This document shows positions 39,097 to 64,000 of a stretch of 64,000 nucleotides of DNA, piece after piece. Origin of the DNA: a virus. The DNA is taken from IMG/VR virus record IMGVR_UViG_3300045988_184153. One strand, 5' to 3'. The first letter of the stretch is position 1, and each line of letters starts with the position of its first letter. The notes under the pieces were generated by a model. It was not told the DNA's origin, did no database searches, and saw nothing but the letters and a program-made list of their open reading frames with translations. The position numbers were made by a program, and so were the translations under genes.

Positions 39097-39113
39097 AGCA
39101 AATCAAATTCTAT

Positions 39114-39165
39114 TATAATTTAAGAAAAATATTTTGCTGTTATTACAGCTAGAAAGAAGGAAAAA
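39114..39165 (+). promoter_or_regulatory. Promoter/5'UTR cassette (TATAATTTAAGAAA, GCTGTTATTACAGC, AGAAAGAAGGAAAAA)
   Basis: Direct reading. Confidence 0.7.
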
Positions 39166-40914: not shown

Positions 40915-41019
40915 AAGGAAAGCCTTTTACTTTTTTTACTTCAAGGACGCATACTTTTGCTATTATAATTTAAGAAATAATAATTCTGAATTTAATTCAG
41001 TTAGAAAGAAGGAAAAATA

Positions 41020-42825: not shown

Positions 42826-42900
42826 GGGGGAATCATTCCTCCTCTTTTATAATTTAAGAAATTAAAAAATCTGAATTTATTTCAGTAGAAAGAGGGAAAA

Positions 42901-43431
42901 ATGGTTTTAAACACAAAAACAGAAGAGTCTTCTCAGTTTGAACAGATGAAGCAAATAAAGGATATTATCCAAAAAGGAGATTATCCACTTTCAGAACAAT
43001 TTATGGATGTTGTCAGGTTGTCTATTAAGAAGCTAACTAAATATCCTTTTGTCAAAGTTAATGCCGGATCAGTAAATGAATTGAAGCTTCCTGTTTTTCA
43101 AATTTATTACTTTTTAAAAACGGATACGTTTGAAATCTTTTCAGAGTACGATGTGGAAGATCTTCCGTTTTTCACAGATGATTTGTGTGTCAACCAACCA
43201 ATTTTGCTAGGAAAGCTCAACTTAAACTCAAGTCGTGAAACTCGACAGTTTAGAGCAATTTTTGGAAAAAGTTTATTGAACGGATCAGAAAATAGAAAAT
43301 TAGAAGTTAACGATTATTATCTTGATAGATTTATAAATTACAAATTTAAAAGTTTTATTAAGAAAAATTTATTGTCAATTTATCAGAATTTTTTGAATAA
43401 CGGTGATTTTCCAAATATTATTACTCGATAG
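42901..43431 (+). CDS. Truncated member of the about 580-aa family (176 aa; N-terminal third only), possibly a gene fragment
   Basis: The IYYFLKTDTFEIF and LGKLNLNSSRETR blocks align to the N-terminal regions of the neighbouring paralogs. Own cassette upstream. Confidence 0.55.
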   Translation: MVLNTKTEESSQFEQMKQIKDIIQKGDYPLSEQFMDVVRLSIKKLTKYPFVKVNAGSVNELKLPVFQIYYFLKTDTFEIFSEYDVEDLPFFTDDLCVNQPILLGKLNLNSSRETRQFRAIFGKSLLNGSENRKLEVNDYYLDRFINYKFKSFIKKNLLSIYQNFLNNGDFPNIITR

Positions 43432-43542
43432 TAAAAAGGAGAGTTAAAGCTCTTCTTTTTTTATTAAAGATTTTATTCTCTAATCTGTTATAATTTAAGA
43501 GAATAAAAATAAAACTATTTAAATAGAAAGAAGGAAAATAAA

Positions 43543-46552: not shown

Positions 46553-46615
46553 CGTATAATAATCCTTCTTTCTTTTTTATTTATTTATTTTCTTAAATTA
46601 TATCTCTAATCAAAA

Positions 46616-46663: not shown

Positions 46664-47443
46664 TTATGGACTTTTTTGTAGGAAGTTTTGTTTAAAATTT
46701 TCTTTATCAAAATTAAATAGACTATTCCACTCTTTTTCTAAATAATCAAATGCCCAATCTCCAAAAGTTGATTTCCCTAAACTCTGAAGAAATTCCAGGA
46801 GCTTATTTTCATCTGTTACAAAATCAGATAAAACTTTTGAAAAATCAGAGTTTGAGTTTTTATTCAAAGTCTGAGAGTATGGTTTTGATTTAAGGTGTTT
46901 TACAACAAGACTGTCAGAACCTTTGAAAAGTAGATTGTAAACGAAATTTTGCAAGTTAAGTTTGTAATCACTATCTTTGTCTGAAAGTTCGTAAAATCTA
47001 TACAAAAATTCACGTGCCTCACGCTTAGAGGTTTCTCCTTTAATCATATATTCATAAAGGAATCCGTATATTTTGTCGTAATAAAATGTATTAAAACTGT
47101 AATTTGCTATGCGATTAACAATAATCTTCGCAAACTCCTCGGCGTTTACTACGATATCAGTCATCTCTTTTTGAAAATCAAGACTAGAATCGTAAAGTGT
47201 TACAAACTGATCAATTGGTAACATTTCCACCGAGTTTACACAGTAGAATTTGTCATTAAAAATACAGAATACAATTTTCGAACTTCTGTGCCCAACCCCG
47301 ATTCGCATTTTATCAGGAGGAAACACGCCCTTTTCCGGAAAATTAAGGAATTGATCTCCAGATTTTGAATATTGATTTAGAACCTTAATAATGTGCTTTT
47401 CTAATTCTAAAAGCAAATTATTATTTTTGTTTGTTGCAATCAA
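46664..47443 (-). CDS. Hypothetical protein (259 aa), 3-gene family member, TTG start
   Basis: ORF track. Cassette TTATAATTTTAGAAAAAAATAAACTTTTACAGTTTTAGAAAGAGGG on the minus strand. Confidence 0.6.
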   Translation of the reverse strand: MIATNKNNNLLLELEKHIIKVLNQYSKSGDQFLNFPEKGVFPPDKMRIGVGHRSSKIVFCIFNDKFYCVNSVEMLPIDQFVTLYDSSLDFQKEMTDIVVNAEEFAKIIVNRIANYSFNTFYYDKIYGFLYEYMIKGETSKREAREFLYRFYELSDKDSDYKLNLQNFVYNLLFKGSDSLVVKHLKSKPYSQTLNKNSNSDFSKVLSDFVTDENKLLEFLQSLGKSTFGDWAFDYLEKEWNSLFNFDKENFKQNFLQKSP

Positions 47444-47589
47444 ATAACTGCCCTCTTTCTAAAACTGTAAAAGTTTATTTTTTTCTAAAATTATAAAAGA
47501 TGACTAGAACCTCCCCCTCTTTTTTGTTGCAGAAAATTCAATTTTTTGATATAATATAAGAAACAAAAATATAGAAAGAAGGAATTAAA

Positions 47590-48816: not shown

Positions 48817-48908
48817 AAAAGAAGAGTGAATATTTCACTCTTCTTTTATAATTTAAGAAAAAAATATTTTACTGAATTATTTTCAGTTAGAAAAGAAGGA
48901 AATTTATA

Positions 48909-50586: not shown

Positions 50587-50952
50587 ATGAAAAAAACTAT
50601 AAAGCTTGGTCTAACTGACCGACACGCTGACGGAATGCCTGCCCTTGACGGGTACGTATTCCCATCAGTTATTAATGATGTAACTGATGTCAAAGCAATG
50701 GACAAGATGGCAGCTGAAGCTATCTTGCCATTACTCCAATTTAAAAAAGTTGCTAAGGAGGCCTTAGCAAACGCTGATATGGGCGACCAAGTCCTATGGC
50801 AATCTGATAAAGGGATTGACCTATACGTGACTGGGCTTACGTCCCTCACAGCTGCTGTTATCAAGTTGGCAGCTTACGAGGGTATTGCCCTAACTTTGTG
50901 GCACTTTGACCGTGCTACAAATACATACTTCCCACAAGTTATTTTTAAATAA
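50587..50952 (+). CDS. Hypothetical protein (121 aa) in a markedly GC-richer segment (about 43% GC against about 28% background); likely horizontally acquired
   Basis: ORF track. Cassette TATAATTATTACAAATAATAAAAAACACCTGATTCAATCAGGAAAGAAGGAG. Composition contrast visible by eye. The antisense ORF 50565..50864 was rejected. Confidence 0.6.
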   Translation: MKKTIKLGLTDRHADGMPALDGYVFPSVINDVTDVKAMDKMAAEAILPLLQFKKVAKEALANADMGDQVLWQSDKGIDLYVTGLTSLTAAVIKLAAYEGIALTLWHFDRATNTYFPQVIFK

Positions 50953-50984
50953 TTGTGGGGAGTATATCTTATCTTGCAAGATTA

Positions 50985-51018
50985 AAATCGACTCCTGGGT
51001 TAGGAGTTGATTTTTTTA
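50985..51018 (+). terminator. Hairpin plus T7 with loop CCTGGGTTAGG; downstream twin of 50476-50508
   Basis: AATCGACTCCTGGGTTAGGAGTTGATT followed by TTTTTTT. Also the palindrome ATCTTGCAAGAT at 50969-50980. Confidence 0.65.
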
Positions 51019-51063
51019 TATTTTAAAAACAAAAAAGGAGTTTTTAAAACCCCTTTTTCTTTA

Positions 51064-53058
51064 TTAAATCCAGTGAGAATATACATTCTCAATCAAATCC
51101 AGGTAAGCCTGTTTGTTGAGATTCTTTGGTAGTTCTTCTGGAAGTTTATCGTTATAGAGTGTAACTGGAGATTCAGGTACGTTTATTACCTTGTTAAGTT
51201 GACCAGTTTTCATATTATAACTCTGAACTCGTTCGCCAGATTCGGTTAGCAGGAATCGATTGATACGAGGTGCTAACTTCAAATTAAAAACAGTTCTAGT
51301 TTCTCGTTGCGCTTTTGATACAAATGCAAATTCTGAAACATTTCCAGATTTGATTTCTTTCTCTAACAAATCAAGCAACTCTTCCTCCGGATTCAAAAGT
51401 TTTTGTAGAATAACTTTATCAACAACCCGAGGTTTTGTTCCGAGTTTTTTGAGGTTTGAAAGTTGATGGTGAACTAGATCATCGCCTTTAGCCTCAACCA
51501 AGACACCATCGTTTACTAGGATACGATCATTATCTGATTTTGCAATATACAAGTCAATCATTTCAGATCCAATCTTCATACCCCAGAACTCTTCCCATTC
51601 ACGAACAACACTTGTGATATCTTTCTCAGAAGTCCAAAACACACCATCTGTGTTAGCACTCCAAACTTCACCACCTGCACGCAGGATACGTGTCACTAGG
51701 TTAAATAGAAGAATTTGAAGGATGATACGTCCTTGAATCATACCGATTGGGTTGTAGATTGGTGTTCCGTTACGGTCTGCATTTCCGGTAGGTTCGTTAG
51801 TTGCTAATTTGCTTGACTCAACACCTTCATTAATTACAGTCACGAGATCTGAAATTGTTTTAACAGATTCTTCGATATCGATACCAAAATCTTTAATCTG
51901 CTCTTTTAGCTCAAACAAATCCAGGAATCCTTCGCTATTCGCTTTATCGATAAGTTTCTTTGCTTTTTTGTAGGCAAACTTATCCTCTTTGTATCCACGA
52001 TAAATTCCGGCGATTTCAGGACTGAAGATGTCCTTCGCTAGAATAATTTCAGTATAAGCGCCTTCCACGTCATCGTGATGAACATTTTTCTTACGGACAC
52101 AAACGGTGTCTAGTCGTTTAGTATGTAAGCCACCACCGGAAGATGAAATTTCCAATTTATTATCAATTGTAAATTTATAGCTTGGGAAAGAAACTTCTTT
52201 GAAAACCTTTTCAGCTTCGAAAATGTGTCCACCTGAAGCAATAATTTCCAAGTATTTATCCATCGCAGCTTCCATCTCAGCTTGATAACGCTTCAACTCT
52301 TCCTTCCAGCCGTCAGGAATAAAATCCAATACGTTGCGACCATTAAATTGCCAGTCAAACTTCTTATCCTTGTGGTTTTTGAATTGTCCGTTGCGTGTGA
52401 TACCTTCAGTTGCTAATTGAGCTCCAGTTTTAGAAAATAGGTGTTCTTTTCCATCAAGGTATCGGTCAATCATTGCAAGATGTTGTTTGTAACCCGCTGT
52501 AATATAAGGATGTTTAAATACAACCTTCATATTTGAAGAACGGTTCATTGAATAAAGAACAACTTTTAAAAGTTTTTCTTCGTTCAACTTTTTCTTTGTC
52601 TTCAAATATACATCAGGTTCAGAAATTGATAACCCCATACGACCAGCAACCTCCTCTAGGGTTGTGCCTTGTTGTAATAAGTTTGCAATATCAAAGAAAC
52701 CGTATGTTTGTTTTGGAGCCGGTGTTAGTTTCCAAGGTTTTACACGTTTAACAGTGAGTTGATTGTGCAACCAATCAATATCACTTTGATTTTTTCCTTG
52801 AGAAACAAGTGGCAAAATGTAAGAATCTAGGAACTTACCATTCCAGAAAACTACACGTTTGTTGTACAGGTAATTGTACAAGGCTTTGGAGTCTAAATAT
52901 TTAGCTCCGTTCTTGTAAATCTCCGCTTGTTTAATTTTTCCACCAATTACAGACACGTACTTCTCATCTGAATCAAGTTCAGAAAATGTTGTGACTGTAT
53001 GATGTTTCAGTAGAATGATATCTACAAAAATAATTGGTTTGTTAATGTCTTTAGCCAT
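51064..53058 (-). CDS. Divergent family-B-like DNA polymerase / nucleotidyltransferase candidate (664 aa)
   Basis: My tentative motif reading, in PolB order: Exo II-like FWNGKFLDSYIL; motif A-like HDDVEGAYTEII; motif B-like KLIDKANSEGF; motif C-like SANTDGVFW. Canonical Exo I DxE is absent (FVDIIL). Motif C has N in place of the first D. The assignment is weak. Confidence 0.35.
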   Translation of the reverse strand: MAKDINKPIIFVDIILLKHHTVTTFSELDSDEKYVSVIGGKIKQAEIYKNGAKYLDSKALYNYLYNKRVVFWNGKFLDSYILPLVSQGKNQSDIDWLHNQLTVKRVKPWKLTPAPKQTYGFFDIANLLQQGTTLEEVAGRMGLSISEPDVYLKTKKKLNEEKLLKVVLYSMNRSSNMKVVFKHPYITAGYKQHLAMIDRYLDGKEHLFSKTGAQLATEGITRNGQFKNHKDKKFDWQFNGRNVLDFIPDGWKEELKRYQAEMEAAMDKYLEIIASGGHIFEAEKVFKEVSFPSYKFTIDNKLEISSSGGGLHTKRLDTVCVRKKNVHHDDVEGAYTEIILAKDIFSPEIAGIYRGYKEDKFAYKKAKKLIDKANSEGFLDLFELKEQIKDFGIDIEESVKTISDLVTVINEGVESSKLATNEPTGNADRNGTPIYNPIGMIQGRIILQILLFNLVTRILRAGGEVWSANTDGVFWTSEKDITSVVREWEEFWGMKIGSEMIDLYIAKSDNDRILVNDGVLVEAKGDDLVHHQLSNLKKLGTKPRVVDKVILQKLLNPEEELLDLLEKEIKSGNVSEFAFVSKAQRETRTVFNLKLAPRINRFLLTESGERVQSYNMKTGQLNKVINVPESPVTLYNDKLPEELPKNLNKQAYLDLIENVYSHWI

Positions 53059-53154: not shown

Positions 53155-54198
53155 TTAAAAAGGAAGAATACTATCCATTTCTTCTAATATTTCAGAAACA
53201 ATCTGAATAACCCTATTTTTTTGTTCAGGATCGCATTTTAATTGAAACATATTTATTAATTTCAGCATTGAATCATTGTCTAACAATCCAGATTTTAATT
53301 CTTCATCACTTATAAGCCAAATCGGTTGGCTACCAGATAGAAAATCTTTAAATTCAAAGCGATCATCAGAAAGTAAAATTTTTTTGTAAAATTCTTCAAA
53401 ATCTTCCTTTGCTTTTTGAGCATAATATTTTAAAATATTTTCATAACCTTCACCACGAGGATCGATTAACATCTGGATTAAATTTTTATTCATCCAACTT
53501 GTTGAAAAATCCTTGGTTGATAGTTTTATATTATGCTGACCAACTTTAGAAGAATCTCTTGTATGATAAAGTGATAGTTTACTATCTGAATCAATATAAA
53601 ATTCTATTTTGTTAGAACCTAAATTTGAGTCTAAATCCAATTGATTAAAAATTGATAATTTTTTTGTGAGGTATTGTGAAATTCTCTTGATAGTTTCTTC
53701 TCTATCAAGTTCAACACTAGGCTTTCTGGTATTAATAAGGTTATTAAAAATATACGCCGTTTCAACCTCAAGTTTCCTAATATTTTTTGTTAAAAACAGA
53801 TACATTTTTTTGTTAATATCCTGTGGAACTCCTGTAATATTTAATTTCGTGATTTCCAATAGATATCTATGTTCTCTACCAAATTTACCACCAGGTTTGA
53901 AATTTGTTTTTGAATCAAAAAATCTATAATCAATATCAAAAACTAAATTTTCGAGTATCTCGTCGTGTTGAATGATGAGGTGAGGATTGTTTGCGAACAA
54001 ACGAATATCTCTATTATTACTATTAGTTTTAAATTTCGACTTAATTTCGCACAAAACTTTTTTTATTAGTAAATTAAATTTTGCGTCCTCTCTTAAACTT
54101 TCAATAAATTCAGTTATATCAGATTTTGCTAGATTTTTTGCAGCATTCATCAAATTAATAATTTGATTATTGTTTTCTTCTTTTGTTTTTACTACCAT
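53155..54198 (-). CDS. Hypothetical protein, about 320-aa paralog family member (347 aa), starts MVVKTKEE
   Basis: Family blocks NRDIRLFANNPHLIIQHDEILENLVFDIDY and C-terminal DPEQKNRVIQIVSEILEEM. Cassette on the minus strand. Confidence 0.7.
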   Translation of the reverse strand: MVVKTKEENNNQIINLMNAAKNLAKSDITEFIESLREDAKFNLLIKKVLCEIKSKFKTNSNNRDIRLFANNPHLIIQHDEILENLVFDIDYRFFDSKTNFKPGGKFGREHRYLLEITKLNITGVPQDINKKMYLFLTKNIRKLEVETAYIFNNLINTRKPSVELDREETIKRISQYLTKKLSIFNQLDLDSNLGSNKIEFYIDSDSKLSLYHTRDSSKVGQHNIKLSTKDFSTSWMNKNLIQMLIDPRGEGYENILKYYAQKAKEDFEEFYKKILLSDDRFEFKDFLSGSQPIWLISDEELKSGLLDNDSMLKLINMFQLKCDPEQKNRVIQIVSEILEEMDSILPF

Positions 54199-54266
54199 AA
54201 TTTCCTTCTTTCTAAAAATTCTATTTTTAAAAATTATAAGAAAAAGAGTAAGTAATTGAAAATTAC

Positions 54267-55286
54267 CTACTCTTGTAATAATCTGGATACAGCCTCCGCA
54301 AATCTTTTTCTCTGTTCAGGATCCTTTTCGTACTGGATTAGAGATTTCAAATGATCGAATGCGCCATATTTTTTGATTTCATCCTCTAACTTTCCTTCAC
54401 TTAAAATTCCAAGTCCGTACTGTCCATTTTTAACATTATTAAGGGTGAAATTATTCCCCTCTAATAATAATTTTGACAAGTAGTTTTTGGCCTCTTGTTT
54501 GATTATCTTAGCGTAATAGATAACGATATCGTCATAAGAATCTCCATACCTGTCGTCCAACATTTTAATATAGGATGTTCTTAAAAACAATGAACTTCTT
54601 AAAGACAAAGATAAATCTATATATCCGAAAAATGTATTCTCTGGTGTGTGGGATTCGGTGACATTTCCTAAATTTCCATCGCTATCAACAAACAAGATGA
54701 AGGCGTTTGATATTGCTTCGTTTCCAATTAATATCTTTAAAGATGACAACTCTGTTTTGATACTTTTAGATACGAACGAAATGACGTCATCATTGGTTAT
54801 ATCTTTATCCGGCTCATCACCGAATGGATTGTTATTAATATCTATTTTCTTTATAATAGAAACTTTTTTCTTTGCCATTTCAATCCGTTTTTCAAGAGAT
54901 AAATTCATTTTCTTATTGATGTTTGATGGAATATTACCCACTAAAAGATTTTTGACCAAAATTGTTTCGTAAGTATCATTACTCCAGGGAGATGATATAA
55001 TAGAATACGGTCCGTCTTCAAAGTCACAAGAAAATTCAAGGTTATCCACAATATTTTCATATTCTAGAATAAGATGATGATTATTCGCCAATAAACGAAC
55101 ATCCCTATTTCTTGAATTTGTTTTTAAAGATGAACGTAAGTATTTCAAAATATCATCAATGGCATTATTAAACAACTCGTGATCAAGTAAATCTTCGTAA
55201 ATTTCCTCAACAGTCTTATTGGCAAGATTCTTCATCCTATTAACCAAATTGATAAAGTTCGTTTCATCTTTGGTAGTCTTTACCAT
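54267..55286 (-). CDS. Hypothetical protein, about 320-aa family member (339 aa), starts MVKTTKDE
   Basis: NRDVRLLANNHHLILEYENIVDNLEF and C-terminal DPEQRKRFAEAVSRLLQE. Cassette at 55287-55343. Confidence 0.7.
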   Translation of the reverse strand: MVKTTKDETNFINLVNRMKNLANKTVEEIYEDLLDHELFNNAIDDILKYLRSSLKTNSRNRDVRLLANNHHLILEYENIVDNLEFSCDFEDGPYSIISSPWSNDTYETILVKNLLVGNIPSNINKKMNLSLEKRIEMAKKKVSIIKKIDINNNPFGDEPDKDITNDDVISFVSKSIKTELSSLKILIGNEAISNAFILFVDSDGNLGNVTESHTPENTFFGYIDLSLSLRSSLFLRTSYIKMLDDRYGDSYDDIVIYYAKIIKQEAKNYLSKLLLEGNNFTLNNVKNGQYGLGILSEGKLEDEIKKYGAFDHLKSLIQYEKDPEQRKRFAEAVSRLLQE

Positions 55287-55343
55287 TTTTTCACCTTCTT
55301 TCTAAAACTATTACAGTTTTCAAATATTTCTTAAATTATAACA
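55287..55343 (-). promoter_or_regulatory. Promoter/5'UTR cassette (minus strand) for 54267..55286, directly abutting the 3' flank of the tnpB-like gene
   Basis: Reverse complement reads TGTTATAATTTAAGAAATATTTGAAAACTGTAATAGTTTTAGAAAGAAGGTGAAAAA-ATG. Confidence 0.65.
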
Positions 55344-55597
55344 GAACTGACCGACATTGATGTGGTACAAGAATTATGAAATATTGTCTACTCCGTAATT
55401 CAAGATTTTTTTTCGTCCGTGACCACAATGACTATTTCATCTTGAAGCAGATGAATATTCTAATTTCATTATCTTATCTGTTTCACCACAGAGGAATTGC
55501 AACATCAAAGACGATGAAAAGTTATTTTAATTTGAATTTCCACACAGAGCCAGACGTCAATCACTTGGTCTTATTCTGGTTAAGTGGAAATACTATG

Positions 55598-56950
55598 TTA
55601 TTTTATTTTATCTGTTAAAGACATACCTCTTCGAGCAATAACATAAGAGGCTCCTGAATGTATGTTTAATTTCATTTTAGGACAATATTTTTGTTTTGCA
55701 ATCCAACTAGTCCAAGCAGGATTAACCTTATGTAAGAAGATTTTATTTTTAACGCATTTAGAAGTTATGATAGAATCAAATTTAGAGTAAGCGAGAGATG
55801 ATAACATCTCATTATACTTCATACCCTTTTTACTAATTAAGTCATCTTTCTTTTTGTTAAAATTAAGTTTTTCTATAACTAAATCTTTTCCGGATTTTAA
55901 ACAATAATCTTTTAATTTAGTTGCTATATATTGAAAATCGATTATTGTTTGATTGCCTTTGCCATATTTATAATATATATTAAAATTATTTATTAGATTA
56001 CCATATTTATCGGTTTCACTAACTGAAACAAAACCCTTGTTAAAATCAACCCCCACCACACCATAACTATTTCTAGTAATACATAAATCCTTATTATGTT
56101 TAAAGTTGTACATAATTTGAAGAAATACTCTATTGTCTTTAATCTTAATTCTATAAGTTAAGGCACTTTCTTTTGTTTTAAGTAGATTCTTCAATAAATT
56201 AGTATAACTTTTATTATTGAAATAAAATTTTCCGTAAACAAATTTGTCATTTTCTAAGTCAATTTCTTTTCTAATTTTAAAATAGAATTGATTTGTTTTC
56301 GAACTGTATTTAACTTGAAAATTGTTATTACAGGTAATATCACCAGATCTACCTATAAAATAGATTTCGCTATCTCGCCTCTTAACAAATTCTTTATAAT
56401 CTTTTTGTAATAATTTTTTAGTTCCAAAACAAACTTTATATTTACCTGTTTTAATTTCATTTAAAATATTGTTTAGCTTTTGTTTCTTAGTATTTAACCT
56501 GTTTTGTTTCCAGTAAATTTTAATTTTTAGATTTTTATATTTAGTAGAATTGAAAGCGCTAGGATTGTTTTTTAAATCGATTCTTTGTAGAGCTCTTTCA
56601 TCTTTTAATTTAATAATCTCTTTTTCAAGATTGTGTATTTTTCTTTCTAAACTCTTTCTTTCAAAATTTTTTAATTCTTTAATAGATTCATATCGACCAA
56701 ACATATTACTCAATATTGCGTCTACCGCTCTACTTGTCAGGTTAAACTCCTCTTTTAATTGAGCGTGAATAATATTTTTATCCTTTTGAGTGACCCTACC
56801 GCTCTTTATATAATAATTTTTAATTCTATGGAAGGTTAATCGTTGAATTTTATTGAACAGTTCAATGTAATCAGAAATGTATTTTCCAACCAACTGATTG
56901 TATTCCCTATTTATTTTTAATTCAGTTGTTATCGTAAATACATTACTCAT
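55598..56950 (-). CDS. TnpB-like protein (450 aa) with degenerate zinc finger and His in place of the RuvC-III Asp; possibly nuclease-impaired
   Basis: RuvC-I-like GVVGVDFNKG. RuvC-II-like DLVIEKLNF. DPAYTSQ-like VNPAWTSWIAKQKYCPKM, with only one Cys where the CxxC...CxxC finger should be. C-terminal NIHSGASYVIARRG aligns to nADxNAAxNIarrG with D replaced by H. Long coiled-coil insertion in the N-terminal half. Own TAAGGAG RBS, not the standard cassette. Confidence 0.6.
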   Translation of the reverse strand: MSNVFTITTELKINREYNQLVGKYISDYIELFNKIQRLTFHRIKNYYIKSGRVTQKDKNIIHAQLKEEFNLTSRAVDAILSNMFGRYESIKELKNFERKSLERKIHNLEKEIIKLKDERALQRIDLKNNPSAFNSTKYKNLKIKIYWKQNRLNTKKQKLNNILNEIKTGKYKVCFGTKKLLQKDYKEFVKRRDSEIYFIGRSGDITCNNNFQVKYSSKTNQFYFKIRKEIDLENDKFVYGKFYFNNKSYTNLLKNLLKTKESALTYRIKIKDNRVFLQIMYNFKHNKDLCITRNSYGVVGVDFNKGFVSVSETDKYGNLINNFNIYYKYGKGNQTIIDFQYIATKLKDYCLKSGKDLVIEKLNFNKKKDDLISKKGMKYNEMLSSLAYSKFDSIITSKCVKNKIFLHKVNPAWTSWIAKQKYCPKMKLNIHSGASYVIARRGMSLTDKIK

Positions 56951-57169
56951 TATTTAATAACTCCTTATTCCTTTTTTATCTAAAACATAACTATATCTTT
57001 CAAAAGATATAATACATTTGTTATCACATTTTTTGACTGCTTGATAAAAACTTAAAATGAATCAACAAATTTATTGATTGTATAATGGTTTTATTTATAT
57101 TCTTTTTTTTGTAAAAAATATTTTCCCTTTTATATCATATTATAAATAAATAATATAAAAAAGTCAAAT

Positions 57170-57214
57170 AAACTATGTAGAATAATTTAAATACATAATC
57201 ATTCTACATAGTTT
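57170..57214. terminator. Perfect 14-bp-arm palindrome (AAACTATGTAGAAT ... ATTCTACATAGTTT) with flanking T-runs; terminator of 57260..58219 within a 310-bp AT-rich non-coding region
   Basis: Direct reading. Confidence 0.6.
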
Positions 57215-57259
57215 ATTTATATTTATTTTTCGGTCTGTTAAAAACTTAAATTGATATAG

Positions 57260-58219
57260 CTATTCTAGCAATAATTCTGTAATAATGTCAGCGAAACGCT
57301 TCTTGTTTTCTTTTGATTCGTTATACAAAAGTTCTTTAATAGCACAAAAACTATTATTGTAACGCAATTCGCTTTTTATTTTTTTATCAGTGAAATAATC
57401 TAGTGAGGCTGTTCTAGCCTCCAAATCTTTAAAGGAAAAGATATCCTCTTCAATTAAAAATTTTGCACTTAATTCTAGAGCCTTTTTTCTAATTTTATCA
57501 CAGTAATCTTTTAATAAAAACTTTTCATCTTCATCGTCAATAAATGATTTTAAAAATAACTTATTATCTCGAGATAAAAAATTGGTTTTATCGTTAATGC
57601 CAATTTTCAAGTTTAACAAATCAATAAGATGATTTTTAAAGCTAAGAGATAATTTTTTATTTTTATCAAGATAAACAGTGGTTGTTTTGAGACGGTGGTG
57701 TGACGATTTTTCAGAATGATAGATGTGGTTAGCAAAGGATAATTTTTCTTTCAAATACTTAGATAAAGAAGTTGCAACTTTATCTTCAGATTTGCATTTT
57801 GAGTCAACACGAAATGAAACTGTAAAGTATTCCCAACTAGATCCATTAGAAATTTTCTTAACTTTAGTATTAATTTTATCCTTAAATTCTTTCTTGATTT
57901 TTTCTGGAAATATTACAGAAACATACTTACCAACCTCAAAAGTATTGCTTGAGTTTTCGACGATATTAAAATCAAATTTTAAATCCTTAACCGCCTTCTC
58001 ATACTCAAAGATTAATTCCGGATTTTCCGCAAACATCTTTGCAAAATCATCAGTGTAATTCAATCGTGCGTACAAATCAGCAAATTCATCATAGATTTCT
58101 TTTACAATTTTAGCCTCACCTATTTTGGATAAAATATCCTCATCACTCATTTTTGCAATATTCTTAAGCGACAAAGATAGTTCTAAAACTTCATTATTAT
58201 TATTTTTCGAACTTTTCAT
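57260..58219 (-). CDS. Hypothetical protein, about 320-aa family member (319 aa)
   Basis: ENPELIFEYEKAVKDLKFDF block and C-terminal ENKKRFADIITELLLE. GAAAGAAGGTG SD. In an operon with 58249..58554. Confidence 0.65.
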   Translation of the reverse strand: MKSSKNNNNEVLELSLSLKNIAKMSDEDILSKIGEAKIVKEIYDEFADLYARLNYTDDFAKMFAENPELIFEYEKAVKDLKFDFNIVENSSNTFEVGKYVSVIFPEKIKKEFKDKINTKVKKISNGSSWEYFTVSFRVDSKCKSEDKVATSLSKYLKEKLSFANHIYHSEKSSHHRLKTTTVYLDKNKKLSLSFKNHLIDLLNLKIGINDKTNFLSRDNKLFLKSFIDDEDEKFLLKDYCDKIRKKALELSAKFLIEEDIFSFKDLEARTASLDYFTDKKIKSELRYNNSFCAIKELLYNESKENKKRFADIITELLLE

Positions 58220-58248
58220 TCGAGCACCTTCTTTCTTTATTTAAATTA

Positions 58249-58554
58249 CTACAAATTGTTAACCAACAACTCTTTTACCAAAAGGAGTCTATTTTCAGTC
58301 TTTTCCAACCACTCCGGCAAATCATCATCAGGTTGCCACGAATATTTTTTCTCTAGCAAGGATAGTTGTGCTTTGTCTCCAAACTCCATATTCTCGGACA
58401 ACCAACGGATGAAATCTGTATCAGATAAAGTGTAAATCATTACAGTTAAATTTTCTGGGTTGATTTCTGTTCCAAAATTAGGCCAGATAACTTTTAAAAA
58501 GTCATAAACTTTTTCTGGAGCAGCAGGTTTTGTATTATCTTTCGATTTTTTCAT
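58249..58554 (-). CDS. Hypothetical protein (101 aa)
   Basis: ORF track. Cassette TTATAATTAAATAAAAAATATACGAAAGAAAGAAGGTATTCGA-ATG on the minus strand. Confidence 0.6.
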   Translation of the reverse strand: MKKSKDNTKPAAPEKVYDFLKVIWPNFGTEINPENLTVMIYTLSDTDFIRWLSENMEFGDKAQLSLLEKKYSWQPDDDLPEWLEKTENRLLLVKELLVNNL

Positions 58555-58646
58555 TCGAATACCTTCTTTCTTTCGTATATTTTTTATTTAATTATAAAAG
58601 AGAATTGACTACAAAAACCAACTCTCTTAATCTCTGTGTCTACTTC

Positions 58647-59510
58647 TTAGGAGAGAACTTTTTTAGCTTCTTTTTTGAAGATTTTTATTAACTTCAACAA
58701 GAAATCATCTTCTGAAATTTTTCCAAAAGTATAGTCAAAGAAATCATTGTTGATATCTGGGTCGATTGGGTTAATTTCGAATCTTGGAATGTGACGGGCA
58801 ACGGATAAATAAAAATCTAAAATCGTTTTGCGATTTTTATTGTTTGTAATAAATAATTTACCATTCTGATCAAAAGAAAGCGTGACTCTCACAGAATCAA
58901 TAGCACGATGATCAAAAATCAAATTAACAACATTTCCTTGATTGCTAATCATTGAACGAACAGATTCAAGAATACGTGAATACTCATTTTGTTCGAATGG
59001 TGAATAATAAAATGTTCGATCACTCAGCAAAAAACCCTCGTCAAGTTCTTTTAGGTTGTTTGAGATATAATCGATATATTTGCAAAGATTAGGATTTGTA
59101 TTTTTGGGAAAAATAAGTTTAATGTCATCAATTTTGTATACAGGTATTCCCATCTCAAAACTATCTAAATTATTACCTTTGATAATCTCTGATTTAAAAC
59201 GAATTTTATTCAACATAGGAAGAACCAGTTCGTCATTTTGGTAATCAACTTCAATTTCCATTTTTTGGATAGTTTCAAAAAATTCAAAAATTAATCCAGG
59301 ATTTTCGTGAAACATAATGATTCCATCATCACCATCTCGACTTTTATCTAATCGAGCACGCTCTTTAGCCTCTTTGAAAACCTCATCGAATTTTTTTCTA
59401 ACAGAACCTAATCGGTTGATAAGAGCCTTATTCTTCTTGAACTCTTTCAGGAGATCCTGCTCGCTTCCACTACGTAAAAATTCTAGTTTTTCATTAAGTT
59501 TAGTTGTCAT
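58647..59510 (-). CDS. Hypothetical protein, about 320-aa family member (287 aa)
   Basis: FHENPGLIFEFFETIQKMEIEVDY block. Cassette on the minus strand. Confidence 0.65.
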   Translation of the reverse strand: MTTKLNEKLEFLRSGSEQDLLKEFKKNKALINRLGSVRKKFDEVFKEAKERARLDKSRDGDDGIIMFHENPGLIFEFFETIQKMEIEVDYQNDELVLPMLNKIRFKSEIIKGNNLDSFEMGIPVYKIDDIKLIFPKNTNPNLCKYIDYISNNLKELDEGFLLSDRTFYYSPFEQNEYSRILESVRSMISNQGNVVNLIFDHRAIDSVRVTLSFDQNGKLFITNNKNRKTILDFYLSVARHIPRFEINPIDPDINNDFFDYTFGKISEDDFLLKLIKIFKKEAKKVLS

Positions 59511-59602
59511 TATAAAACCTTCTTTCTTTTTATTCTTTTAATTTATTATATCAAAATTCGTACTTTTTTTCAATAAAAAAAAGAGGGTGCCGCCCCTCAT
59601 TT

Positions 59603-60103
59603 TTATTTATTCATCAACTTGACAACATCGTCAGCTAATGCGTCAATAACGTCGTCAAACCCGACTCCGTTTTTATTGAATGCAAAGTCGATGAACAAGT
59701 CAGAATGATCTTTGTTATCAAAATCGACAACAATTGATCCGAGGAGTGGGTGTAGGCGGTTAACAACATCGCCATCACGAACCACGCCGAAAAATGGATT
59801 TGTGATTACTTTGACCATTCCATTAACAGACATTAAAAATAATGTCTTTGTGGTTCCAAGAGGACCCTTGGAGTCTTTTAGCGCTTTTGCTAAAAGACCC
59901 GCACCAATGTTGAAGTTGGCGTCGGTTGCGGCATAACCGATAATAAACATTGGTGAATTTGTGTGACTTTTCACCACTTTAGACTTATTAAAGTCATTAG
60001 TGACGTTAATCACACGATTACGCATAGCCATAACAGCTTTGCGGACAGCTGTTGAGTTCTTCAACATATCAACAGCTGTTTTTTTAGTTAATTTGTCAGT
60101 CAT
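59603..60103 (-). CDS. Hypothetical protein (166 aa), paralog of 28968..29519
   Basis: Conserved C-terminus (see 28968..29519). Cassette with ATCCGATAAAAATCGG hairpin and GGAAAGAAGGGACAATA-ATG. Confidence 0.65.
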   Translation of the reverse strand: MTDKLTKKTAVDMLKNSTAVRKAVMAMRNRVINVTNDFNKSKVVKSHTNSPMFIIGYAATDANFNIGAGLLAKALKDSKGPLGTTKTLFLMSVNGMVKVITNPFFGVVRDGDVVNRLHPLLGSIVVDFDNKDHSDLFIDFAFNKNGVGFDDVIDALADDVVKLMNK

Positions 60104-60204
60104 ATTGTCCCTTCTTTCCCCGATTTTTATCGGATTTTTTTAAATATCTGAATTAATTATAGAGAAAAAATAAAAGGACATACTAATGTCCCTTTTTATT
60201 TTGC

Positions 60205-60750
60205 TTATAAAACTTCAAAAATGATATCGAAGTTTTCTTTTTTGATTGGGTAAAGTTCACCCTTCACCCCACGAGCAAGGATATCTGTTGGAAACAGATT
60301 TTCCTTACCTTCTAAAGTATCAATTGCGATATGCCCAACTTCTTTGACTGATTCAGTTGTTTGAGCTGTTTCTCCAATAAATTTCAGAACATCCTGAATA
60401 TCTTCATCTTTTAAAGATGAAAATTCAATCACGTCAATTTGAATGGGTACTTTTTTATAAGTATCCCCCTCAACTTTTTCGTATGTTTTAGAGAAAATTT
60501 CAGGATCGACAGACCAGTAAGATACGCCATCAACATCCAATAACATCCAGTTATTCACCGGTAATAAAATTGGTTGTTTTGTATCACCAAAAGTTTTGGT
60601 AATCAAAATAGTTTTTGATTTTTCTTCAAGAACAGCCGGTTCAGATTCATTTTTATTTAACAAATCCAATACCAATTTGGTGTTAGAACCGTCATACTGC
60701 ATAGCGAATGTTTCGATCGCTTTCTTTTGTGCTTTAAAGTTTTGTGTCAT
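60205..60750 (-). CDS. Hypothetical protein (181 aa)
   Basis: ORF track. Cassette with CTGAGCCAAGCTCAG hairpin and GAGGAAGAAGGAGATTAAA-ATG. Confidence 0.65.
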   Translation of the reverse strand: MTQNFKAQKKAIETFAMQYDGSNTKLVLDLLNKNESEPAVLEEKSKTILITKTFGDTKQPILLPVNNWMLLDVDGVSYWSVDPEIFSKTYEKVEGDTYKKVPIQIDVIEFSSLKDEDIQDVLKFIGETAQTTESVKEVGHIAIDTLEGKENLFPTDILARGVKGELYPIKKENFDIIFEVL

Positions 60751-60834
60751 TTTAATCTCCTTCTTCCTCTGAGCTTGGCTCAGTAATTTATTTTTAAAAT
60801 TATAGAAAAAAGAAAACCGATTAATTCAGTTTTC

Positions 60835-61839
60835 TTAAGAATTACCCTTTAACAATTCTGCAATAATTTCAGCAAAGCGTTCAATCTGTTTCGGATCTTT
60901 TTCATTCTTGATAAAATCTTTGAGCCCCAATACATTGTGATTAAATTTAAGCCCCTCTTTTATTTTTTTATCAGAAATCAATTCAAGTTTAGCGTTACCT
61001 TTTCGAACATCATCAATTGTAAAAGGATCATCCAAAACTAGAACTTCAGAGGCTTTTTTTATCGAAGCTTTGATTATCTTTTCAGCATAAAATTCTAACA
61101 AGAGTTTTTTATTAGAATCAATATTATTACATAAATAATCAAAGAACAGGCCATTTGTTTGAGAAGAGTATTTTCCAAGAGTATCTAATCCAACTTTTAG
61201 ATTTCCAAATTTAATACATTCTTTTTGGTACTTATAACTCTTGTCTGTATAAAGTTGGCCATCCTTATCAATCAAAAGCGGCATAATTTTTGTAGTTGTT
61301 TCAATCCACTGATCCCGAAAAATAATATTAAAAGGATACAATTCTCTTTTGATTTTCTTAAGTAAAAATTTTTCAATTTCACTTTCCTTTGCTTTCCGGA
61401 TATAACTTTTTGTGATATCGTAAAGATTAATCTCTAATAGATTACCTTTTACCTTTGAAAATCTTTCTGTAATTATTGTTTTGATATTAGGATTTGTATT
61501 TTGGGGAATGTTGATCTTTAAATTTTTAATTTCGTAAACGTAAGAATGATCACCGGTTACAATTCGTTCATCAAATGAAATCGTGATTTCACTAACTGCT
61601 TTTTCTAGTTTGGGAACTAAATCTAAATTTTCAACAAGCAATCTTCCTTCTTCAGTATCAACTTTTTTGACATTCAAAAAATAAGAACAATTTTTAATTA
61701 GAGTTTTTAAAACACCCATAAAAGACTCGTCACTTTCCAAAATTTCTGCCACATCACTGACAGATTTTTTTGAAAAAGTTTGCAGTTGTTTAAAAACATC
61801 AATTTTAGGATTGTCAATTTCTTTTGACTTTTTAACCAT
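60835..61839 (-). CDS. Hypothetical protein, about 320-aa family member (334 aa), starts MVKKSKE
   Basis: C-terminal DPKQIERFAEIIAELLKG. Cassette TGTTATAATATAAGAAAGAATTAAATGCTGAAATAAATTCAGTTAAAAGAAAGGAATTTAATA-ATG. Confidence 0.7.
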   Translation of the reverse strand: MVKKSKEIDNPKIDVFKQLQTFSKKSVSDVAEILESDESFMGVLKTLIKNCSYFLNVKKVDTEEGRLLVENLDLVPKLEKAVSEITISFDERIVTGDHSYVYEIKNLKINIPQNTNPNIKTIITERFSKVKGNLLEINLYDITKSYIRKAKESEIEKFLLKKIKRELYPFNIIFRDQWIETTTKIMPLLIDKDGQLYTDKSYKYQKECIKFGNLKVGLDTLGKYSSQTNGLFFDYLCNNIDSNKKLLLEFYAEKIIKASIKKASEVLVLDDPFTIDDVRKGNAKLELISDKKIKEGLKFNHNVLGLKDFIKNEKDPKQIERFAEIIAELLKGNS

Positions 61840-61962
61840 TATTAAATTCCTTTCTTTTAACTGAATTTATTTCAGCATTTAATTCTTTCTTATATTATAA
61901 CAGAAATAAGCCTATATATCAAATTTAAAAAAGGAATATCAAACTTGATATTCCTAGTTTTA

Positions 61963-62913
61963 TTACAGTGAATAATATTCTTGTAAACTTTCGTAACTTG
62001 GTTTATAATCGCCATTAAAGGCTGACCATTTGTATTTATACTTTCTATCATTAATCCAGAATTTCATCTTCTCCAAAAGATAATCTGAAAAAATAAGGTT
62101 CGTTAACCCACCAATCTTAATTTCATTAATAGATAAAATGTCTTTTACAGACCTAACAGAAAAACCTTGCTCTTCAGACATTTCTGAAACTTTTCTGCAA
62201 AATTTACATTTCTTAAATAAGAAAAACTCATAAATCAAAAAGAAAGATATACTACCTAAACCATAATAGAAGAACATTTCTTCGGATAGCATAACAATTC
62301 CAATACCGATCCCAAAAACAACCGCAAAGGGTGTTGGTATAACCGGGAAAAACATTTTTTCTTTTGCGTGCTTGAAGAAATTAATCTCCCAAGAACGCTT
62401 ATCCAACAAGGTTAAGTAAGACTCGAGGTCATAACCTTTGTACCAGGAAAGATTTTTTAAAACCTCTTCCAGTTTTGGATCAAAAACGTTGTCAATCTTT
62501 TCAATATCTACAATATTGTTATCAGCAATTCTAGACTTTGTTGAATCATTTGCAAAATCAACCAATTTACTGATAACAACTTCGTACTCTTCCACTGAAA
62601 TAAATTCAGAGAGTTTCTGTGCTTGACTGAAATACATTTCAGTAGATGGAATCTTCTCTTGACTAACGAAAGTATCACCTTCGTTATCTTTCAAGACCTT
62701 CATACGATTTCCTGAAACAGTTGAAACTGTGGATCCGCCATCTTCGAGCTCTAATTTTACTTTTCCATCAGAAATATTGATAAAGATGTTTGTTTCTCCA
62801 GTTGAAAATTGAGCTCCAACACTATTATGACCTTCCTTTAGTTTGGAGCTATAAATATCATTAATTTTTAGCAACTTATCTAAATAAATAGCCAATTCTT
62901 TTGTTAATGTCAT
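61963..62913 (-). CDS. Membrane protein (316 aa) with C-terminal TM helices, co-transcribed downstream of the helicase gene
   Basis: ORF track. Hydrophobic segments FFPVIPTPFAVVFGIGIGIVML and GLGSISFFLIYEFFLF. The start is 24 nt after the helicase stop, with AAGAAAGGATAAAAAAAACAA-ATG. Confidence 0.6.
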   Translation of the reverse strand: MTLTKELAIYLDKLLKINDIYSSKLKEGHNSVGAQFSTGETNIFINISDGKVKLELEDGGSTVSTVSGNRMKVLKDNEGDTFVSQEKIPSTEMYFSQAQKLSEFISVEEYEVVISKLVDFANDSTKSRIADNNIVDIEKIDNVFDPKLEEVLKNLSWYKGYDLESYLTLLDKRSWEINFFKHAKEKMFFPVIPTPFAVVFGIGIGIVMLSEEMFFYYGLGSISFFLIYEFFLFKKCKFCRKVSEMSEEQGFSVRSVKDILSINEIKIGGLTNLIFSDYLLEKMKFWINDRKYKYKWSAFNGDYKPSYESLQEYYSL

Positions 62914-62936: not shown

Positions 62937-64000
62937 TTACAGACGCTCTTTAATCAAACTAACACGTTCTAAGTTTGAAATATCAGTTAATGATTCATTA
63001 AGAGTTTCGACTTGACCAATGATAACATTTACTTCCCTTGTCCTTGTGTATCCGGTGTAAACAAGCGATCTGTTCAAAGTTCTTCGTTGTGTTTTATCCA
63101 CAATCTGAATAACGACCTTAGCTTCACTTCCTTGAGACTTGTGGCAAGTTATTGCGTATGCAATGTTGATATCGTAAATACTGTACCCTGAATACTCAAC
63201 AACCCGATTTTCATCGACAGTATCGCCCTCAAACGTTACCTCCAAAACCTTTTTCCCATCATCTCTAATAATAATGTCAGTCACGATTCCGGTTTCTCCG
63301 TTAAAGACTAAATTGTCATAGTCGTTCACCATTTGAATAATTGGATCACCAACATAAAATGCAGAATTGTCTTCCTTGCGAATAATAACCGGCTCATCTT
63401 CTGGATGTTCAAACGTTCTCTGGATCTCTCGATTGATATTTAAGGTTCCCAACTCACCTTTCTTTTGGGCAGACAGGATTAAAATATCGCTATGGTCGAA
63501 TCCTAGCTTTAAAAATCGCTTATAGGATTTAATGAGTGCGTCGATCCCCTCTTGAGTGTTTTGTGTATTGATAAAATAAGAGTCCGAAATTCCACCGTCA
63601 CTTCTCTTTTCGTTGAAAACAAGCCCGTTTTGGTTTTCTTTGTTATAACCAACACCAGATTTCATAAGATGTGCGTTACTAACCAATCTCGATCCGTCAG
63701 CTTGACGAAAAACTTTATTTAAAATTACAGTTTCTACCTTTTTAGATTCAATCAAATCTCTTAAAATCAAACCCGCACCAACAGAAGGCAATTGGTTCTC
63801 GTCGCCAACAAGTAAAAGGTTTGAATTTGGTGACAATGCACTTAAAAGTTGAGAGAATAGGTAAACGTCAATCATTGAGGATTCATCCACAATAACAAAA
63901 TGCTCCTCAATCTTCTTAACATTTTCCTCTCGACCAAAACCCTGAAGATGTAGTTTTCGGTGGATAGTAGAAGCAGGAAATCCCAGAACTTCTGCAAGGC
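62937..64000 (-). CDS. recD2: RecD2-type SF1B DNA helicase, C-terminal portion (the gene continues beyond the window end; the ORF-track Met is internal)
   Basis: The frame stays open to position 64000. Translation there reads LAEVLGFPASTIHRKLHLQGFGREENVKKIEEHFVIVDESSMIDVY, the RecD2 motif Ia/II region. Then LLLVGDENQLPSVGAG, ITCHKSQGSEAKVVI, VYTGYTRTRE (motifs III, V, VI). Confidence 0.8.
   Translation of the reverse strand, partial: LAEVLGFPASTIHRKLHLQGFGREENVKKIEEHFVIVDESSMIDVYLFSQLLSALSPNSNLLLVGDENQLPSVGAGLILRDLIESKKVETVILNKVFRQADGSRLVSNAHLMKSGVGYNKENQNGLVFNEKRSDGGISDSYFINTQNTQEGIDALIKSYKRFLKLGFDHSDILILSAQKKGELGTLNINREIQRTFEHPEDEPVIIRKEDNSAFYVGDPIIQMVNDYDNLVFNGETGIVTDIIIRDDGKKVLEVTFEGDTVDENRVVEYSGYSIYDINIAYAITCHKSQGSEAKVVIQIVDKTQRRTLNRSLVYTGYTRTREVNVIIGQVETLNESLTDISNLERVSLIKERL

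Follow-up and report, generated by a model that had tools for sequence, protein, structure and literature searches.

Between the 3' part of a RecD2-type helicase gene and a phage-type DNA polymerase gene, the window (the whole 64-kb stretch of viral DNA that was analysed) carries five open reading frames of about 320 codons on the minus strand, all present as the original prediction had described them and here called m1 to m5. The genes and control regions of this interval are as follows.

51064..53058 (-), phage-type DNA polymerase, 664 aa, matching phrog_1252 'DNA polymerase' (E 2.5e-38); downstream border of the array
53155..54198 (-), m1, 347 aa, adjoining the DNA polymerase gene; orthologues in related loci are 56-99% identical
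54199..54266 (-), m1 leader: m2 terminator hairpin, T-run, TATAAT, then AGAAAGAAGG RBS
54267..55286 (-), m2, 339 aa; orthologue classes at 95, 73-75 and 50% identity; modelled with AlphaFold
55287..55363 (-), m2 leader: right arm of the split m3 terminator hairpin, TATAATTTAAGAAA, small hairpin, AGAAAGAAGG RBS
55364..57229 (-), mobile insertion of ~1.87 kb in the loop of the m3 terminator hairpin, carrying a 450-aa tnpB-like ORF (55598-56950)
57260..58219 (-), m3, 319 aa, with only an RBS in the 29-nt spacer after the DpnD_N gene
58249..58554 (-), DpnD_N-domain gene, 101 aa (Pfam PF23117, E 2.8e-32), lying between m4 and m3 but outside the family
58647..59510 (-), m4, 287 aa, divergent, ending ~60 residues early and lacking the C-terminal motif
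59511..59602 (-), m4 leader: terminator, TTGAAA-17-TATAAT promoter, RBS
59603..60103 (-), 166-aa gene separating m5 from m4; a paralogue lies at 28971-29537
60205..60750 (-), 181-aa gene whose C-terminal half matches phrog_419
60835..61839 (-), m5, 334 aa, a family member by ORF, BLASTP and orthologues
61840..61962 (-), m5 leader: terminator, TTGATA-17-TATAAT promoter, small hairpin, RBS
61963..62913 (-), predicted membrane protein of 316 aa, separated from the upstream helicase gene by 23 nt
62937..64000 (-), RecD2-type helicase, 3' part (Pfam SH3_13, AAA_30, UvrD_C_2), running off the window; upstream border of the array

The helicase is 791-823 aa long in relatives, with full-length genes in loci L001-L005, and the polymerase has distant tblastn matches to crAss-like and Leuconostoc phage polymerases. 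The 316-aa protein contains the strongest hydrophobic stretch of the cluster (KD19 2.25). The DpnD_N gene is absent in L005; neither this gene nor its 181-aa neighbour provided informative context, and the literature on DpnD yielded nothing relevant.

The five genes constitute one protein family. BLASTP aligned m1 with m2 over their full length (117 bits), and the pairs m1-m5 (65 bits), m1-m3 (62), m2-m5 (66), m3-m5 (70) and m2-m3 (41) were likewise aligned end to end. An HMM of the remaining four members gave the divergent m4 22.2 bits, compared with 9.2 bits for the best of 1000 m4 shuffles, and no other ORF of the 64-kb window scored with the family HMM. These values support the homology originally proposed, at a mutual identity of 14-31%. 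The family was shown to have arisen by an old tandem duplication, each paralogue forming its own orthologous lineage. Two shared motif blocks had been described. The C-terminal block, D[PK][EK]Q..RF, holds for m1, m2, m3 and m5 and is missing from m4, which ends ~60 residues before it. The N-terminal block is looser than was written, with N-P-x-L-I and a few other positions being all of it that is conserved across the five orthologue groups. The 101-aa ORF after m4 was considered as a detached m4 C-terminus and ruled out, being the DpnD_N-domain protein. Across the five orthologue groups, conservation is limited to about 25 positions. Of the polar residues D201 alone is invariant, N69, N122 and N124 each being kept in four groups, and none of the positions was found to have a conserved H, C or S. 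The family also lacks Walker A, CxxC and HExxH motifs and, at the level of sequence, conserved catalytic-type residues.

An RBS precedes all five copies and a promoter four of them. The separate cassette predicted for each member, here a terminator/promoter/RBS unit, is therefore present for four and fails for m3, which has no promoter of its own and, judging from the gene spacing, is probably co-transcribed with the upstream DpnD_N gene. A uniform promoter had also been put forward as a trait of the family. However, the promoter-leader unit stands before ~30 of 49 genes; the terminator/-10/hairpin/RBS arrangement is the standard of the whole element, common to most genes and not family-specific.

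The insertion of a tnpB-like gene between m2 and m3 was confirmed by comparison with L001 and at least 17 further related loci, all of which have the site empty. Its description as degenerate is not supported, since the 450-aa ORF is intact in three elements, with copies of the insertion at three different positions (the window, L007 and L021). As a polymorphic ~1.7-1.9-kb insertion with a single ORF it resembles TnpB and the IS200-IS605 accessory proteins, and residues 342-431 of the protein resemble the TnpB C-terminal region. Unlike these proteins, however, it scored below threshold with TIGR01766 (31.3 bits, cut-off 32), NF040570 (30.5 bits, cut-off 100) and Pfam TNB (14.8 bits, cut-off 26.3). 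It contains no CxxC zinc-finger pairs and has no detectable similarity to the canonical TnpB encoded at 10620-11801; there is no tnpA in the insert and no Rfam RNA beside it.

Related loci were collected using the polymerase as anchor. The order RecD-316-m5-181-(166)-m4-DpnD-m3-m2-m1-Pol is fixed in 20-odd loci, distant ones included, and is held in lineages whose polymerases are only ~50-56% identical. This search of relatives, which the original prediction had proposed, returned one-to-one orthologues of the members, with their order kept in almost every related element. Retention of m1, m2, m3 and m5 is nearly universal; m4 is absent in L002 and L016 and was not detected in L023, and the array of L007 is reduced to two members, three having been lost. 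The whole 20-kb neighbourhood is syntenic in related elements, and several other paralogous families occur elsewhere on the element. The related elements measure 337-393 kb and derive from human oral or saliva metagenomes, the PRJEB6997 cohort among them. No relative of the polymerase was present among 185,579 GTDB species genomes, and no relative of the family in phage and plasmid collections. The family was shown to be restricted to one lineage of ~340-390-kb oral elements, which bears out its designation as an ORFan family.

The host element very probably belongs to the Inocles, giant extrachromosomal elements of oral Streptococcus described in 2025 (Kiguchi et al., 2025; PMC12340149). These are ~290-395 kb long, were obtained from human saliva, have a GC content of ~32%, carry a RecD-like helicase and ISs, are absent from isolate genomes and are reported in most human mouths; they also encode VirB4 and VirD4 (PMC12340149). 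The present element agrees with them in size, oral source, GC (~31-33%), RecD-like helicase, IS/TnpB content, absence from isolate genomes, LPXTG-type surface proteins and hypervariable regions. GC within the window ranges from 0.25 to 0.39 and is mostly ~0.31-0.35. The Inocle marker InoC, a protein of ~454 aa with a replication-relaxation domain (PF13814; PMC12340149), did not turn up in a Pfam scan of 30 ORFs of the window outside the family cluster, the window representing 64 of ~374 kb, and the published Inocle_004 PCR primers do not occur in the 64-kb window. Most Inocle protein families are unannotated, and the present family is not described there (PMC12340149).

Profile searches and structure prediction, both suggested at the outset, gave no known relative. 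Pfam, PHROGs, NCBIfam and PDB sequences contained no match to the family, no weak Pfam or PHROG match recurred across 14 members, and no member or neighbouring gene matched PADLOC models at E up to 0.1. Comparison with the neighbours by hhalign (the 316-, 181-, 166-, 475-, 185- and 121-aa proteins, DpnD, the polymerase and gk) gave probabilities of 1.2% or less throughout. Two of the five members, m2 and m4, were modelled. The AF2 model of m2 (pLDDT 86.6, pTM 0.80) and that of m4 (pLDDT 75.9) agree in topology, with the same order of secondary-structure elements, m4 ending after the first long C-terminal helix. The predicted family fold would comprise an N-terminal five-helix bundle, a central antiparallel sheet with packed helices and a C-terminal helical bundle; it has no match among PDB and BFVD folds.

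Two known types of replication protein were considered. RepA_N initiators of Firmicutes plasmids are ~310-340 aa long and combine conserved domains at both ends with a variable, iteron-containing middle. The family resembles them in length, in its conserved ends and variable middle, and in its neighbourhood of replication genes on a Firmicutes plasmid-like element, but the absence of a Pfam match, iterons and a fold match ruled out RepA_N-like initiators. A clamp-loader-like or AAA+ five-paralogue assembly was ruled out by the lack of a Walker A motif and of an AAA+ fold.

Signal peptides, transmembrane segments and LPXTG or WXG motifs are absent from m1-m5, and there was no Pfam LXG or WXG100 match. 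With peak 19-residue hydropathies of 0.7-1.4 and pI values of 5.2-8.9, the proteins were shown, as far as such sequence features indicate, to be soluble and cytoplasmic. To our knowledge, a type IV secretion signal is not recognisable from sequence.

Selection was assessed gene-wide and by thirds (N-terminal, central and C-terminal). Gene-wide dN/dS for the family was 0.04-0.5, mostly 0.1-0.3, and the value per third was 0.06-0.27 in every member, as estimated from unsaturated pairs (dS 0.02-0.6). Since every third of each member falls within this range, selection acts on the protein sequence, and the family is under purifying selection; no region of any member had a dN/dS near or above 1, and diversifying selection, for which a test had been proposed, is not supported. 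Values for the family are 3-5 times those of the replication enzymes (helicase, polymerase and guanylate kinase, 0.01-0.07) and comparable to those of the 166-, 181-, 185- and 475-aa genes of the element (0.1-0.35). Variation between orthologues of m2 and of m4 is concentrated at residues ~100-245. Mosaic alleles occur on near-identical backbones; in L021, for example, the polymerase is 100% and m3 99% identical, and m2 only 74%. However, the polymerase has a divergent allele class of its own (83% identity, dS ~1.6; L007, L015 and L016), and the mosaic is therefore attributed to general recombination between lineages and not to a trait of the family. A dS of ~1 for m2 versus 0.2-0.4 for the polymerase could suggest that the alleles of the family predate the backbone, but the dS of ~1.6 of that polymerase class weakens this argument. 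Searches for features that would enable switching revealed no relevant tandem or inverted repeats, no iterons and no invertible segments.

With low confidence, we take the family to consist of cytoplasmic proteins that bind partners and have no enzymatic activity, serving either in conflict between element and host or in the replication and maintenance of the element. The helical ends, which are conserved, would supply a shared frame, and the central alpha/beta domain, the most allele-variable part in m2 and m4, may contact a partner that differs between paralogues. Host or rival-element proteins would be the favoured class of partner, implying an anti-defence, exclusion or host-takeover role, and we tentatively prefer binding or adaptor proteins directed at such partners while giving them less than an even chance. 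Counting towards the binding-protein reading are the lineage restriction, the lack of a database match, the agreeing models, the missing catalytic motif, the lack of membrane and export features and the fixed synteny, together with a dN/dS above that of the replication genes, the central variation of m2 and m4, the mosaic alleles and the polymorphism of m4 and of the L007 array. By analogy, the array may be compared with tandem anti-defence or host-takeover arrays (anti-restriction and anti-CRISPR clusters), which it resembles in its lineage-only, individually promoted small genes of the same orientation, its presence/absence and allelic polymorphism and the other small unknown genes interleaved. 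It differs from them in having no homology to them, in the larger size of ~320 aa (known anti-defence proteins are mostly smaller), in an order fixed over five lineages and in the lack of a positive selection signal. Against a conflict role, four or five copies are kept almost everywhere, which is more like a core than an accessory function, and the divergence matches that of other small unknown genes and may simply reflect weak constraint. The absence of any region with dN/dS near 1 is a weaker signal than expected for an arms-race interface.

An accessory-subunit role in the element's own replication or maintenance machinery is almost as likely, though also doubtful. The paralogues would assemble, perhaps as hetero-oligomers joined by their conserved helical ends, with the RecD2-type helicase, the phage-type polymerase or the element DNA. 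This proposal agrees with purifying selection, with the near-universal retention of m1, m2, m3 and m5, with conserved N- and C-terminal helical parts that could be oligomerisation surfaces, and with the position of the array between helicase and polymerase, on the same strand, in all sampled lineages down to ~50-56% polymerase identity. This adjacency weighs little, however, because the whole 20-kb neighbourhood is syntenic; moreover, searches revealed neither a nucleotide-binding motif nor a DNA-binding or clamp/loader-like fold, the pI is near neutral, m4 is dispensable, L007 keeps two members, and the replication enzymes have a dN/dS 3-5 times lower. Weakly constrained, largely dispensable 'filler' ORFans with no specific shared role, their diversity reflecting relaxed constraint and recombination, are an unlikely explanation. 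The tolerated IS insertion, the losses of m4 and of three members in L007, the further paralogous families on the element and a dN/dS like that of its other small unknown genes would fit, but the low dN/dS in each third denotes selection on protein, and five paralogues at 14-31% identity have been kept intact, with a well-defined predicted fold and in an order conserved over deep divergence. That the proteins are element-specific expression regulators, sigma-like or anti-terminator-like, recognising the TATAATTTAAGAAA/hairpin/AGAAAGAAGG unit is improbable: a leader unit used so uniformly invites a dedicated factor and both protein ends are helix-rich, but recognisable helix-turn-helix, sigma or other nucleic-acid-binding folds are lacking, the leader is nearly invariant whereas the proteins have strongly diverged, and they show no positive charge bias. 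Most improbable is a repertoire of the variable or effector-like kind initially proposed, secreted or displayed at the surface and shaped by diversifying selection. A lineage-only multigene family with separate promoters and high allele divergence might suggest one, as might the many surface proteins encoded elsewhere on the element and the VirB4 and VirD4 of Inocles (PMC12340149). Yet export and surface motifs are lacking, dN/dS is far below 1, there are no switching repeats, the C-terminal motif is missing from m4, and the paralogues are distinct lineages with one-to-one orthology, arranged alike in nearly every related element.

The family is thus a well-documented new lineage-specific orphan family, stably kept rather than fast-changing, and not a mechanistic discovery. 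It may, although we consider this rather unlikely, represent a new fold and an Inocle-specific machine, either a hetero-oligomeric adaptor between helicase and polymerase or a set of inhibitors each directed against a different host defence or competence function. As one of the few unannotated families that are multi-copy, well conserved, confidently foldable and located beside replication genes, it is a concrete target for replication and defence experiments, and such a machine, if real, would explain the persistence of a ~370-kb element in oral streptococci.

The five minus-strand ORFs that the original prediction had grouped as a family of about 320 residues, here m1 to m5, are all present at exactly the predicted positions:

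53155-54198, minus strand, m1, 347 aa
54267-55286, minus strand, m2, 339 aa
57260-58219, minus strand, m3, 319 aa
58647-59510, minus strand, m4, 287 aa
60835-61839, minus strand, m5, 334 aa

m1, m2, m3 and m5 align end to end, with pairwise scores of 117 bits (m1-m2), 62-70 bits (m1-m3, m1-m5, m2-m5 and m3-m5) and 41 bits (m2-m3). m4 is far more divergent and scored 22.2 bits against an HMM of the other four, compared with 9.2 bits for the best of 1000 shuffles under the same HMM. Against this HMM, all remaining ORFs of the 64-kb window stayed within noise. Judged by sequence comparison, the predicted homology stands and the family is real, with five members within the window. In the multiple alignment m4 ends ~60-70 residues short of the other members and therefore lacks the C-terminal DP[EK]Q..RF..I..ELL block; this motif, proposed for all members, holds for m1, m2, m3 and m5. 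The proposed N-terminal block is shared in its N-P-x-L-I core but is looser than first described, the conserved core over the five orthologue groups comprising N-P-x-L-I and about 20 scattered positions.

The AlphaFold2 model of m2, obtained with a 9-sequence alignment (pLDDT 86.6, pTM 0.80), consists of three parts:

residues 6-81, five N-terminal helices
residues 84-117 and 192-227, an antiparallel sheet packed with helices 125-141 and 165-187
residues 233-338, a C-terminal helical bundle

The m4 model (pLDDT 75.9) shows the same order of elements and stops after the first long C-terminal helix. This predicted three-part fold is confident and finds no counterpart in either the PDB or BFVD. 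Members m1-m5, with pI values of 5.2-8.9, lack signal peptides and hydrophobic segments, and none has a Walker A, CxxC, HExxH, LPXTG or WXG motif. D201 is the sole invariant polar position across the five orthologue groups, while N69, N122 and N124 are each kept in four of the five. The proteins look cytoplasmic and apparently non-enzymatic, of a binding or scaffold type.

The array lies on one strand, in the order helicase, 316-aa membrane protein, m5, 181-aa gene (phrog_419), 166-aa gene, m4, DpnD_N gene, m3, insertion, m2, m1 and 664-aa polymerase, so that the helicase and polymerase genes flank it. Among its neighbours are:

62937 to beyond the window end, minus strand, RecD2-type helicase, 791-823 aa in relatives
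58249-58554, minus strand, stand-alone DpnD_N domain protein (PF23117, E 2.8e-32), embedded in the array
55598-56950, minus strand, 450-aa tnpB-like ORF, the sole ORF of a mobile unit of ~1.7-1.9 kb

The 664-aa protein matched the PHROG 'DNA polymerase' family 1252 at 2.5e-38, with distant matches also to crAss-like and Leuconostoc phage polymerases, and has no relative in 185,579 GTDB species genomes or in IMG/VR. A tblastn search of PLSDB plasmids with the DpnD_N protein found nothing. Over 41 nt spanning the RBS and opening codons, m3 (58198-58238; protein start MKSSKNNN) and the DpnD_N gene (58533-58573; MKKSKDNT) share 88% identity, suggesting that their 5' end may be common or recombined. 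The 166-aa gene belongs to a paralogue pair, 28971-29537 with 59606-60139.

Nothing similar to the family was found in phage and plasmid collections. Among 5.8 billion proteins, a word-indexed search returned close relatives only, on metagenome contigs of up to 340-380 kb originating from human oral metagenomes; one contig of 374,225 bp carries all five window proteins, identical at every residue and annotated only as 'hypothetical protein'. When 1.84 billion cluster representatives were searched exhaustively with a HMMER profile, 32 proteins came back, with no distant relatives at that sensitivity. Five of these are full-length clusters (347, 338, 334, 319 and 287 aa) corresponding one-to-one with m1-m5, and the other 27, at 31-160 aa, are evidently fragments. 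Relatives of the element do carry the family, in oral-metagenome contigs of its own lineage only. Pfam, PHROGs, NCBIfam and PADLOC, queried with single members and with 14 members, yielded no match up to E 10. Against PDB sequences, the profile matched solely a designed helical bundle, and every probability was ≤1.2% in profile-profile comparison with nine neighbouring genes.

The element resembles the Inocles, described in 2025 as giant extrachromosomal elements (PMC12340149), in contig size, oral source and GC content (~31-33% here). A RecD-like helicase, TnpB/IS elements and sortase-type surface proteins also occur here, and both are absent from isolate genomes. As InoC, the defining Inocle marker, is not among the scanned ORFs of the window (64 kb of the 374,225-bp contig), it is very probable but not proven that the window belongs to an Inocle. 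Other features of the window are:

15616-18712, a three-protein paralogous family, no Pfam domains
20950-28916, SSSPR-51/MucBP/G5 surface-protein family
37747-39054, 45314-46576 and 46667-47458, minus strand, three paralogues, no Pfam domains
39124-45276, three ~590-aa paralogues, no Pfam domains

Convergent genes meet at 50950-51064 (plus strand to 50952, minus strand from 51064), with a bidirectional terminator at 50984-51059 and a cumulative GC skew peak at about 50-52 kb; this is possibly a replication terminus, or merely a strand-switch point.

Across 23 related loci (L001-L023), m1-m5 stand in identical order in nearly all, also in lineages where polymerase identity drops to about 50-56% (long-read errors account for part of the low value in L022). 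Because the same five recur in the same order, each paralogue represents an old orthologous lineage, and the array is not a shuffling repertoire. L002 and L016 lack m4, which also went undetected in L023; L005 lacks the DpnD_N gene, and L007 retains only m5-like and m2-like copies.

Identity to the window in related loci (%); classes for m1-m5, most loci for the enzymes
m1: 98-99; 83-90; 56
m2: 95; 73-75; 50
m3: 96-99; 88-91; 59
m4: 98; 68-70; 60-62
m5: 99; 93; 79-85; 59
Polymerase: 96-100
Helicase: 97-100

Since the identity classes combine differently from element to element, the region is a recombination mosaic. Allele differences in m2 and m4 are concentrated at residues ~100-245, the central domain. 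Synonymous divergence between allele classes is about 1 for m2 and 0.75-0.95 for m4, against 0.2-0.4 for the polymerase in the same elements; however, the polymerase has a divergent class of its own (dS about 1.6 in L007, L015 and L016), so that old, recombination-reassorted alleles are a property of the region and not of the family alone. In two long-read contigs (L018 11239-13426, L022 11211-13343) an extra stretch of about 2.1-2.2 kb breaks the polymerase gene after residue ~400-413; it could be an IS, intron or intein-like insertion.

Selection was estimated by the Nei-Gojobori method. The dN/dS values of the five members, mostly 0.1-0.3, indicate that they encode proteins under purifying selection. 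Values were 0.01-0.03 for the helicase, 0.01-0.07 for the polymerase, 0.02-0.04 for the guanylate kinase and 0.1-0.36 for other small genes without annotation on the element; relative to the replication enzymes, constraint on m1-m5 is weaker by a factor of about 3-5. Diversifying selection, raised in the original prediction, gave no regional signal: with genes cut into thirds and unsaturated allele pairs only (dS 0.02-0.6), dN/dS was 0.06-0.27 in every third of every member. Saturated comparisons gave values up to 0.2-0.4 for the central domain.

A single intergenic design precedes about 30 of the 49 window genes, on both strands: the terminator hairpin and T-run of the upstream gene, a TATAAT box (often within TATAATTTAAGAAA), a short variable hairpin, AGAAAGAAGG and the start codon. 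The -10 motif TATAATTTAAGAAA has 27 matches with ≤2 mismatches (7.4 expected) and the RBS motif AGAAAGAAGG 19 exact matches (0.37 expected). Examples between 13.8 and 62 kb are:

39081-39127, leader unit
40964-40977, leader unit
46589-46602, leader unit
48847-48860, leader unit
55327-55340, leader unit

A small 5'-UTR hairpin directly before the RBS is conserved in these units. The family is expressed from this generic unit of the element, and a uniform promoter is not its hallmark. Each member had been credited with its own cassette, which is true of m1, m2, m4 and m5; m3 is the exception, starting 29 nt after the DpnD_N gene behind a spacer with an RBS only.

The m3-m2 spacer in L001 measures 106 nt and holds a perfect terminator hairpin, CTGACCGACA-TTGA-TGTCGGTCAG; about 1866 nt (roughly 55364-57229) interrupt the loop of this m3 hairpin in the window. 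The site is empty in at least 18 related loci, and the unit recurs, with 87-89% nucleotide identity, at other positions in L007 (3221-4828) and L021 (3750-5420), giving three sites in three elements. These observations together confirm the proposed insertion between m2 and m3. Next to its copy, L007 lacks the 181-aa gene, most of m3 and the DpnD_N gene. All three copies keep an intact 450-aa ORF, which is better called highly divergent and apparently still mobile than 'degenerate'. Its likeness to TnpB models is limited to residues 342-431, with scores below the model cut-offs; it has no CxxC pairs, and no similarity between it and the canonical TnpB (10620-11801) could be detected. By eye, NIHSGAS replaces the usual RuvC-III aspartate context. 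The unit may be a nuclease-inactive TnpB derivative still mobilised in trans. Directly after the canonical TnpB gene lies a RAGATH-18 RNA (11838-11917, plus strand, 72.5 bits), the guide-RNA-type motif that an IS605-family element is expected to carry.

The family comprises five paralogues confined to this element lineage, held in a fixed place between the helicase and polymerase genes and under purifying selection. A variable or effector-like repertoire, as first proposed, is not supported: the orthology of the five paralogues is fixed, their dN/dS is low, secretion signals are lacking and the promoter unit is used across the element, all of which speak against it. Regulators or secreted effectors are likewise less likely than the readings that follow.

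We infer that m1-m5 would act as binding or adaptor proteins, with the conserved helical ends as a shared frame and the central domain, which varies more, making contact with a paralogue-specific partner. Tentatively, such proteins might serve at the interface with the host or rival elements, in anti-defence, exclusion or host takeover. Somewhat less likely, they would be accessory parts of the machinery that replicates or maintains the element, next to whose genes they lie, and a little less likely again, weakly constrained genes without a specific common role. It is well supported that m1-m5 are a new family of orphan proteins, carried by a giant oral element discovered only recently; at present the family holds no mechanistic surprise, but it merits a line in Inocle annotation and a targeted experiment.
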